This document shows positions 6,001 to 8,581 of a DNA stretch of 8,581 bases, piece by piece. Numbering within the stretch: position 1 is the stretch's first letter; each line of letters begins with the position of its first letter. Made by a program: the position numbers. This DNA comes from a virus (lineage: Duplodnaviria; Heunggongvirae; Uroviricota; Caudoviricetes), in the IMG/VR virus record IMGVR_UViG_2609459857_000002, positions 1-8,581 of that record; one strand, given 5' to 3'.

Positions 6001-8581
6001 GTTTATGCGAATGGACAGCATGTATTTCGTTTCCAGAATGGTGTGGCAATAGCGTTAAAAAATATTCAGGCCGGAAATGTTAAAAAATTCACGTTATCCA
6101 GCGCCAACAACTCCACGAAAAACGCAACGTTTAATTTATGGGGTAATTCATCCCGACCTGTAGTTGCAGAGCTTGGTGATGATTCCGGCTGGCATTTTTA
6201 CAGCCAGAGAAATACCGATGGCAGTATCACATTCGCTGTAAACGGACAGATGACCCCATCAAACTATGGAAATTTCGATGCCCGTTATCAGCAGCGAAAT
6301 GGCGGCGTGCAGGATGTGCGTTATGGTTCCGAAATGTATTACACCCCGGGAGGTAACCAGGTATCCTGGATATTTCGCTCACCTTCAGGCCACGGGTTAT
6401 CCGGTATTAATGTGCAGGAAACCGGAAGTAATTCGGCAGATAACATCGGCGGCGTGTATTACCGACCGCTTCAGAAACTGATTAACGGCACCTGGTATAA
6501 CGTGGCGAGTGTTTAACAATGTTGCATTTAAAAAATATTACTGCGGGCAATCCGAAAACCGCAGAACAATATCAGATGACAAAACAATATGGTGTCACCT
6601 GGCTTTTTTCGGAAGACGACAAAAACTGGTATGAAGAACAGAAGAACTTTGCCAGCGACACAATAAAAATGGTTTACACCGGGGACGGGCGCGTGGTGTG
6701 GGTCGGTAAGGACGTGACAGGCATTGAACCCCGTAACGCCAGTGTTATTGAGGTTCAGGATATTACCGCTAACCGCCGTATTACCGTGCCTGGTTACTGG
6801 TTTTACCGCAATGATGAATTTGTTTTCGACTACAAACTTAAAGCGGAAGATGAGCGTGATGCCTTGTTAAAACAGGTCAGTATCATGACCAGCGAATGGG
6901 AAAAAGACCTGCTGCTGGGATTAATCAGCGACGAAGACAGGGATAAGCTGAAAGCGTACTGCCTTTACGCGAAATCGCTGCAGGCGATGGATTTCAGCAC
7001 CATCGCTGATAAAAGCTCATATAACGCCATTGAATGGCCCGTCTCTCCGGAAGCCTCTTCCTGATTTAATTTATCGCGAGAAAAACTATGTCTGTAGTGA
7101 TATCAGGTGCGCTGATAGATGGCGCAGGCATCCCTATGTCCGGATGCCACATAATTCTGAAATCCCGGGTAAACACCTCAGAAGTGGTGATGCGCACAGT
7201 TGCCGACGTGGTGACAGGAAACTGTGGCGAGTACTGTTTTAAGGCGCAGACCGGAAAATACTGCGTATATCTGAAACAGGACTGGCGCGACGAGTACTGT
7301 GTTGGCGATATTGCTGTATACGACGACTCAAAGCCCGGCACGCTGAACGACTTTCTGACTGCCCTTGATGAAGGCGATTTAAAGCCGGATGTAGTGAAAC
7401 GCTTTGAGGAAATGGTGGCGCAGGCGCAGCAGAGCGCGGAAGCGGCAGCGGAAAGCGAGCGACAGGCCGGGCAACATGTCGCTGATGCGCAACAAATTAA
7501 GAGCGACTGCGAGACGCTGGCGGATAACGTACAGCAGAATGCAGAATCCGTTGCCGAAGATAAAAAGCAGGTGGCACAACTGGCATCATCTGCCACACAG
7601 GATGCGGCCCGCGCAGAGCAGGCTGTCAAGGATGCTGACGCGATAGTCCAGAAAGCGGTCGATAAACTTGCTGATGCCGCAACGCTGACCGGCGAGGCAA
7701 AAGCCAGCGCCGAAGCGGCTGCAAAAAGCGAGCAGAACGCAAAAAGTCACGCTGATAATGCCGCCGGAAACGCACAACAGACTGCGCAGGATGTGACAGC
7801 AACTAAAACGGCCCGTGATGACGCAGAGCGTTTTGCGAATGAGGCAGAAAACAGTGCACAGACATCAGGGGTGGCGCGGGATGAATCGGTTGATGCAGCC
7901 GGACGCGCCAGTCAGTATAAGGAAGCAGCGTCTTCGGCTGCGACCAGTGCAGAAAATGCGGCAAATGTTGCGCTGGGCCATGAAAATAACGCTGCCGAAT
8001 ATGCACGACAGGCTGGGGCATCAAAAGATACAGCCGGGGAGCATGCAGAGAAAGCAAAAAAATATGCAGAAGAAATCAAGTCTCAGGGCGAAAAAGCCAA
8101 TATATCGGCCGATAAAAAAAACATACTGGTGCGACTGGGCGATGGTCTGTTTGTGAATGGCGCCCACCCACTGATCCCCAAGATGGGGGGGCACAATTAT
8201 ACAACCACACTGAATAATTTCCGGAGTCTGCCAGACGGAACCCGCGTATATTCACTTTCTATTGGCGTCAGCAATCCGTTGAATACGGGCGTAATTGGCG
8301 GATATGGTATAGCGATTGCTCCCATAATTACCCCTGGTTATCTTTATCTTGATGAGCAAAAGAAATGCATACCGGCGCAGTATCTGATGGACTCGGTTAC
8401 AGCCACAGCCAGTGAAATAAAAATAGCGCTGAAGGTTGTGCTGACAGGAAAACCACAGTATGCAGTAGATGTGTCGGATCTGGAAACACGGGAGGAGGGG
8501 GATGGCAGCGGCAATATTGGTTGCAAACTTTCCATCCACATACTGGCCGGAACAACATTACGACAAAACGGAATAAGCTGA

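Follow-up and report, generated by a model that had tools for sequence, protein, structure and literature searches.

The second tail-fibre gene and its distal domain

We analyzed an 8,581-nucleotide stretch of a virus of the Caudoviricetes (IMG/VR record IMGVR_UViG_2609459857_000002, positions 1 to 8,581; this whole stretch is the window below), which carries a Mu-like tail and baseplate module, and looked in particular at the C-terminal end of its second tail fibre. An IS1 transposase fragment precedes the module, whose genes are those for a DNA-circularisation protein, a gp44-like hub, gp45, gp46, baseplate J/gp47 and gp48/YmfQ; a first fibre, a Caudo_TAP chaperone and the second fibre follow in this order (Table 1). 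Residue numbers refer to the open reading frame (ORF) of the second fibre, which ends with a stop codon at 8579-8581 and for which the gene call on the source contig, JNNA01000025.1, is identical. The protein consists only of an anchor, a shaft and a tip and shows no other globular candidate for binding.

Table 1. Features of the window; those of the second fibre are listed first.
Feature	Position	Strand	Basis or remark
Second tail-fibre gene, 497 amino acids: anchor, Ala-rich helical shaft, tip	7088-8581	+	ORF; phrog_17582 and phrog_2636 'tail fiber protein'
PF08400 'prophage tail fibre N-terminal' anchor, residues 1-134	7088-7489	+	Pfam E = 1.3e-62
Ala/Gln/Glu-rich shaft, residues ~101-340, probably alpha-helical	7388-8107	+	Composition; G+C at codon position 1 (GC1) of 0.72
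Recombination crossover GAATATGCACGACAGGC, encoding E304-A309 (EYARQA)	7997-8013	+	Sole stretch common to both parental types
Swapped-in module: last ~37 shaft residues and tip, residues 304-497	7997-8581	+	99% identity to lambdoid side tail fibre genes of 399 amino acids
Conserved neck N-I-L-x4-DGLFVNGAHPLIPK (NxL..GLFVxGxHPxIPK), residues 345-365	8120-8182	+	20-sequence alignment
Predicted all-beta sandwich tip domain, lectin-like 'foot', residues ~362-490	8171-8557	+	
C-terminal tail GTTLRQNGIS	8549-8578	+	20-sequence alignment
First fibre, 402 amino acids	5308-6516	+	Conventional tail-fibre type by PHROG
Caudo_TAP assembly chaperone	6519-7064	+	Directly upstream of second fibre
IS1 transposase gene, 3' part (PF03400)	19-237		Fragment at window start

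In frame, the tip covers 8108-8578 (residues 341-497), and the peptide LVRLGDG... begins at nucleotide 8126 (residue 347). An initial annotation of this DNA had placed the start of the tip at 8110, which is out of frame, but the peptide that it quoted is the true C-terminus of the 497 amino acid ORF. It had also stated that the C-terminal ~150 residues match no recognised fibre tip and lack the Gly/His-rich repeats and the motifs of lambda or T-even type tips, and both observations are confirmed here. No Pfam or NCBIfam family matches residues 341-497, a sequence search of the PDB gives no match for the tip, whether it is queried alone or as a 20-sequence profile, and the tip contains neither His/Gly-rich repeats (no HxH runs) nor any of the fibre-tip Pfam families. 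When 20 members of the tip family were scanned, no Pfam family matched the segment in any of them, and none at E <= 10, H_lectin included, was common to them.

The tip is a genuine conserved domain and no chance feature, with homologues found at E-values of 5e-47 to 1e-5 and a family alignment that gives a confident model. Conservation was read from this 20-sequence alignment (A1), which covers window residues 341-497. Across the family, conservation is highest in the neck, in the SLPDG and NPL..GGxG loops and in the tail GTTLxQNGM. In the neck, which is of low entropy, the domain residues N5, I23 and K25 are invariant and P24 is nearly invariant, while the tail is the lowest-entropy segment of the domain (G148 is invariant, Q153 and G155 nearly so) and always lies within a few residues of the protein end. 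The strands are more variable than the loops (mean entropy of 2.17 versus 1.72 bits). Such a pattern, with loops and tail more conserved than strands, is unusual for a receptor-binding tip.

The anchor scores 210 bits against a PF08400 gathering cut-off of 26.6. Its residues 1-93 match PDB 9e7m chain Ta, 'Tail fiber protein' (E = 6e-17), and the anchor also matches the N-terminus of the solved 'collar spike' protein 7kjk (E = 9e-11), so that the second fibre might dock elsewhere than at the baseplate on the Mu-like tail. From the shaft, the last ~16 residues alone were modelled, and these are helical in a low-confidence single-sequence model (pLDDT 35).

Mosaic junction, family and gene context of the tip

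The initial annotation suggested, from a drop in G+C content, that the tip had been swapped in. A discrete, swapped-in C-terminal module is borne out by sequence comparison, which shows myovirus-type fibre sequence up to a crossover and sequence of a lambdoid side tail fibre (Stf) after it. Residues 1-329 are 91% identical to the 759 amino acid second fibre that E. coli C311 carries in a myovirus-type prophage at ssrA; beyond the shared part, this fibre continues with a different distal part, and a DUF4376 gene comes next. Residues 304-497 are ~99% identical to the 399 amino acid side tail fibres of lambdoid prophages. At the DNA level, homology to the C311 type spans 7001-8013 of the window (blastn; a megablast match also ends at 8013), and homology to the lambdoid Stf begins at 7997, reaches the stop codon and extends 212 bp further on the source contig (blastn). 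Based on these two limits, the crossover lies within the 17 shared bases; the protein comparisons agree with the DNA-level junction, and the crossover is in frame.

As an independent proof of the swap, the G+C drop is weak. The hand counts behind it were exact (28/60 in the tip and 35/60 in the shaft), but the contrast mostly reflects the Ala codons of the shaft, which act at codon position 1, and composition alone is therefore no evidence of foreign origin; at codon position 3 (GC3) the shaft and the tip differ little (0.51 versus 0.47). GC3 is unusually low (0.32) in the imported shaft piece of ~37 residues (7997-8107), compared with the 0.51 of the resident shaft and the 0.47 of the tip.

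Downstream of the stop codon, the source contig carries 300 bp, then tRNA-Ser(TGA) at 8882-8969, and after that hyaA and the hya operon. The 3' flank (8564-9400 in the source-contig locus, L005) shares 98% identity with the right end of a lambdoid prophage that is integrated at serT in E. coli M9 and has a different Stf and then DUF4376 and DUF1353 genes. With the C311 relative located at ssrA and a 3' flank of the serT type, one possible origin of the chimera, judged from sequence, is that it arose by recombination between two resident prophages.

The tip is rare. It is found in 5 of 5,426 complete E. coli genomes, in every case as a 399 amino acid Stf that follows J and Lom and is the last prophage gene, and the five lambdoid prophages adjoin potB (4) or zinT (1). 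The exact 497 amino acid chimera was found in two assemblies only and in none of the complete E. coli genomes. When 1.84 billion cluster representatives were scanned exhaustively with HMMER, 22 hits were obtained, 21 of them credible (50%-identity clusters), and in all 21 the domain forms the very C-terminal end of a protein 181-865 amino acids long. The remaining hit (P0022), a synthetic-looking triple cholera toxin B repeat whose E-value of 2e-4 comes from three summed weak matches, was rejected as spurious (hhalign probability of 0.04%). Word-indexed protein search was insensitive here and returned 2, then 6 hits. No relative was found in a scan of GTDB representative genomes, a search of IMG/VR gave one prophage contig, and in the literature no paper on the tip domain was found.

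The N-terminal parts of the family members vary, but they correspond to anchors or trimeric shafts already known from fibres: PF08400, P2-type PF12571, collagen repeats, the head and stalk of YadA, and 'SAYxIW...DFLxWL' repeats. Several members have a collagen triple helix that stops a few residues before the neck. One member (P0007, 865 amino acids; L010 5001-7598) has a central region of ~550 residues between its Stf-N anchor and shaft and its tip; this region matches nothing in Pfam and may represent an enzymatic or binding domain not yet characterised. PHROG 33169 ('unknown function') matches the C-terminal ~150 positions (E = 1.1e-41 for the window) and is hit by 20 of 20 members. When the window tip was used as a tblastn query, nothing was found in 50,697 phage records or 72,556 plasmids, and a second family member as query gave nothing in phages; a third retrieved, among the 50,697 phages, only the Serratia BF and Erwinia pEa_SNUABM jumbo phages. 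In phage BF, gp223 lies in the tail-fibre cluster (hhalign probability of 99.5%; Foldseek match with E = 3e-11 and TM 0.70). The members of PHROG 33169, BF gp223 and the Erwinia pEa_SNUABM_12-like proteins are true sequence homologues of the tip, with different N-terminal parts, and are annotated as hypothetical.

The tip is encoded within tail modules. In the window and in the loci L010 and L008, the gene that carries it follows the baseplate genes, a first fibre and the TAP gene, and in L009 it follows baseplate wedge genes. L010 is a metagenomic Mu-like element, in which the tip is 44% identical and the next gene is on the opposite strand and not phage-like. L008 is a P2/HP1-like element with the same gene order, although there PF12571, not Stf-N, is the anchor of the second fibre. 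The dual-fibre layout, namely a conventional fibre, Caudo_TAP and a second fibre, is seen at 5308-8581 of the window, at 8309-12787 of L004, at 2580-6053 of L008 and at 2769-7598 of L010, and the second-fibre anchor in these contractile-tail loci is PF08400 in three of the four and P2-type PF12571 in L008. The layout recurs independently, and thus a dual-fibre system with a chaperone-less second fibre is a natural arrangement and not only an accident of one chromosome. No tail-fibre assembly gene (PF02413/tfa) lies directly downstream of the tip on the source contig, where the second fibre is likewise the last gene of the prophage, or in the five lambdoid prophages; in L008, L009 and phage BF, the ORFs that come next are not TAP-like.

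Predicted fold and putative role of the tip

The structure was predicted with AlphaFold2. The single-sequence model of residues 321-497 has a pLDDT of 35, and the model of the domain made with the 20-sequence family alignment has a pLDDT of 84 and a pTM of 0.74. In the monomer, a disordered neck (domain residues 1-21, confidence < 50) is followed by an all-beta sandwich of ~130 residues; the low confidence of the neck in a monomer is as expected if the neck depends on a trimer. In the predicted model, the beta-sandwich, or jellyroll, core can be superposed on members of the discoidin-like or H-type lectin 'foot' class. With one unlabelled match value per PDB entry, the matches are Helix pomatia agglutinin (2ccv, 6.8; 88/99 residues, 2.8 Å), the LKA1 gp49 tailspike (4ru4, 6.0), the AP22 gp54 tailspike (4y9v, 5.5), the R1 pyocin fibre (6cxb, 5.4), discoidin I (2w94, 5.4), the phi297 tailspike (4ru5, 5.3), lectin SLL-2 (3wmp, 4.8), the R2 pyocin fibre (6cu2, 4.6) and AP22 gp53 (4mtm, 4.3). 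The R-pyocin foot, AP22 gp53, the C-domains of LKA1 and phi297, agglutinin, discoidin I/II and the octocoral lectin have been listed as one discoidin-like lectin jellyroll class, which was proposed to bind lipopolysaccharide (LPS) sugars via distal loops (Salazar et al., PMC6363177), and the LKA1 C-domain was placed in the same lectin-like class (Olszak et al., PMC5701251). All of the matched proteins except AP22 gp54 belong to this class. A Foldseek search of the predicted model against the PDB gave no significant hit, and a BFVD protein named 'H-type lectin domain' gave a weak structural hit.

The initial annotation considered that a confident match, by sequence or by structure, to a characterised receptor-binding fold would speak against a novel domain. 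Such a match exists in part, since the structural matches are modest and coherent, while no sequence match is found. The proposal that the tip is a receptor-binding domain of undescribed specificity therefore stays the most likely reading as regards the specificity (no Pfam family, PHROG 33169, 'hypothetical protein' in cultured phages) and not as regards a new fold, as the coherent matches to the lectin 'foot' class indicate that the fold is probably not new. Good evidence from the model supports the fold class; homology to it is not proven. The tip probably represents a known kind of fibre tip, formed by a previously unnamed and rare sequence family outside Pfam.

Comparison with known systems shows what the tip shares with them and where it departs. 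The R1 and R2 pyocin feet and AP22 gp53 carry a discoidin-like lectin jellyroll at the distal fibre end, but they have no detectable sequence similarity to the window tip, which is larger (~130 versus ~95 residues). In addition, the pyocin feet need a co-expressed chaperone and have hypervariable loops, whereas the window tip has no chaperone gene and its loops are conserved across the family. The H-type lectins (Helix pomatia agglutinin, the C-domain of discoidin I and octocoral SLL-2) share 6-11% sequence identity with the tip; they are eukaryotic, soluble proteins and not fibre tips, while the window tip has extra strands and the neck and tail motifs. Podovirus tailspikes (LKA1 gp49, phi297, AP22 gp54 and KP32gp38, 9qrm) have C-terminal lectin-like domains too, yet in these a large enzymatic beta-helix, which the window fibre lacks, does the main receptor work. 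With fibres of the lambda Stf or T4 gp37 type, the window fibre shares the PF08400 anchor, and in the lambdoid prophages the slot after J and Lom is the same, but the tip is unrelated and there is neither a His/Gly repeat region nor a tfa gene downstream.

Based on these data, we suggest that residues ~341-497 form the distal end of the second tail fibre, an accessory fibre that would be a homotrimer. The tip would be trimeric and lectin-like, would serve both trimerisation and saccharide binding, and would travel as a portable cassette, a reading that we consider reasonably probable. In such a mechanism, the neck leads into the ~130-residue beta-sandwich with the topology of discoidin-like or H-type lectin 'foot' domains, and the two together would nucleate the trimerisation of the shaft from its C-terminal end and set its register, without a dedicated Tfa-type chaperone. 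The sandwich would bind a surface saccharide (LPS core, O-antigen or capsule) and thereby contribute to an initial, reversible adsorption and to part of the host range. Homologous recombination within the shaft would have transferred the cassette from a lambdoid Stf to the second fibre of the prophage with the Mu-like baseplate. A trimeric state is suggested by the collagen, YadA and Stf-N contexts upstream of the domain; in particular, a collagen triple helix that ends just before the neck implies a trimer. Saccharide binding is suggested by analogy with the lectin-like class, and the tip may be independent of a chaperone, as trimer nucleation from the C-terminal end would explain the absence of an accompanying Tfa-type gene.

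Several points weigh against this proposal. The greater conservation of loops and tail is the opposite of the hypervariable distal loops in R-pyocin feet, and it fits a structural or trimerising role, or a conserved ligand, better than a diversifying receptor recognition. KP32gp38 requires its lectin-like C-domain in order to trimerise, and this domain transfers no specificity (PMC13082707). For R-pyocin feet, soluble expression depends on a chaperone (PMC6363177), so the missing chaperone gene sets the tip apart from its class. Finally, none of the 20 scanned members has a sequence-level link to Pfam H_lectin. As a more specific version, offered as a tentative possibility, the tip might be a self-assembling, chaperone-free cassette whose invariant SLPDG, NPL..GGxG and GTTLxQNGM motifs recognise a conserved surface ligand.

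The initial annotation had also allowed that the tip is something other than a receptor binder. Nothing was found in support of this. One option is that the tip is mainly a C-terminal trimerisation or folding module, a built-in registration cap with little receptor specificity, like the LEC domain of KP32gp38. We regard this option as doubtful, since the window fibre and the 399 amino acid lambdoid Stf contain only anchor, helical shaft and tip, with nothing else to bind a receptor, and the module is exchanged by recombination, as is usual for tips; moreover, the trimerising and receptor-binding roles are not exclusive. Another option, that the tip recognises an outer-membrane protein and not a saccharide, appears unlikely. 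The best fold matches are coherently lectins and saccharide-directed fibre or tailspike domains, and the family extends beyond the Enterobacteriaceae on very different fibres, with conserved loops that are easier to reconcile with a glycan-type ligand.

That two resident prophages recombined in a decaying element and left the chimeric gene as a non-functional by-product is, in our view, quite unlikely. The IS1 fragment that adjoins the tail module would fit such a history, as would the restriction of the 497 amino acid chimera to two assemblies (one lineage) and its absence from complete E. coli genomes, together with a 3' flank that up to the tRNA-Ser is the right end of lambdoid prophages (L001, L007) while the closest myoviral relative lies at ssrA. 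Yet the crossover keeps the reading frame, and the ORF is intact. The same layout is found independently in L010, with a Stf-N fibre and the 44%-identical tip, and the same gene order in L008 with its PF12571 anchor. Whatever the state of the window prophage, the tip is kept at 99% in five lambdoid prophages. That the tip is an intramolecular chaperone auto-cleaved after assembly, of the endosialidase or Peptidase_S74 type, would agree with its C-terminal position and the lack of a separate chaperone gene but is highly improbable, as there is no Pfam match to Peptidase_S74, no invariant Ser in the alignment that could belong to a catalytic Ser-Lys pair, and the predicted fold is all-beta.

Fibre tips set phage host range, and they are the parts that phage and tailocin engineering exchanges. 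The tip proposed here as a lectin-like cassette is small (~155 amino acids), apparently needs no partner chaperone gene and is naturally portable across very different fibre scaffolds, with a recombination junction mapped to 17 bp. Pfam does not include it and few sequenced phages carry it, and identification of its ligand would add one defined receptor-binding module and a family for annotating 'hypothetical' fibre ends. If it were indeed a chaperone-free cassette for a conserved ligand, it would be a compact plug-in receptor-binding domain for host-range engineering across siphovirus, myovirus and jumbo-phage fibres. The tip poses no challenge to the current view of fibre function; it is useful for annotation and possibly for engineering.

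Flanking features of the window

Two further observations concern the remaining features in Table 1. The start of the first fibre is ambiguous, as its longest ORF begins with a TTG at 5275 and the gene callers place the start at 5308, and both candidate starts overlap the end of the gp48/YmfQ gene at 5321. At the left end of the window (1-237), the end of the IS1 fragment is followed after 24 bp by the start of the DNA-circularisation gene at 261, and both assemblies that contain the locus break at this fragment.
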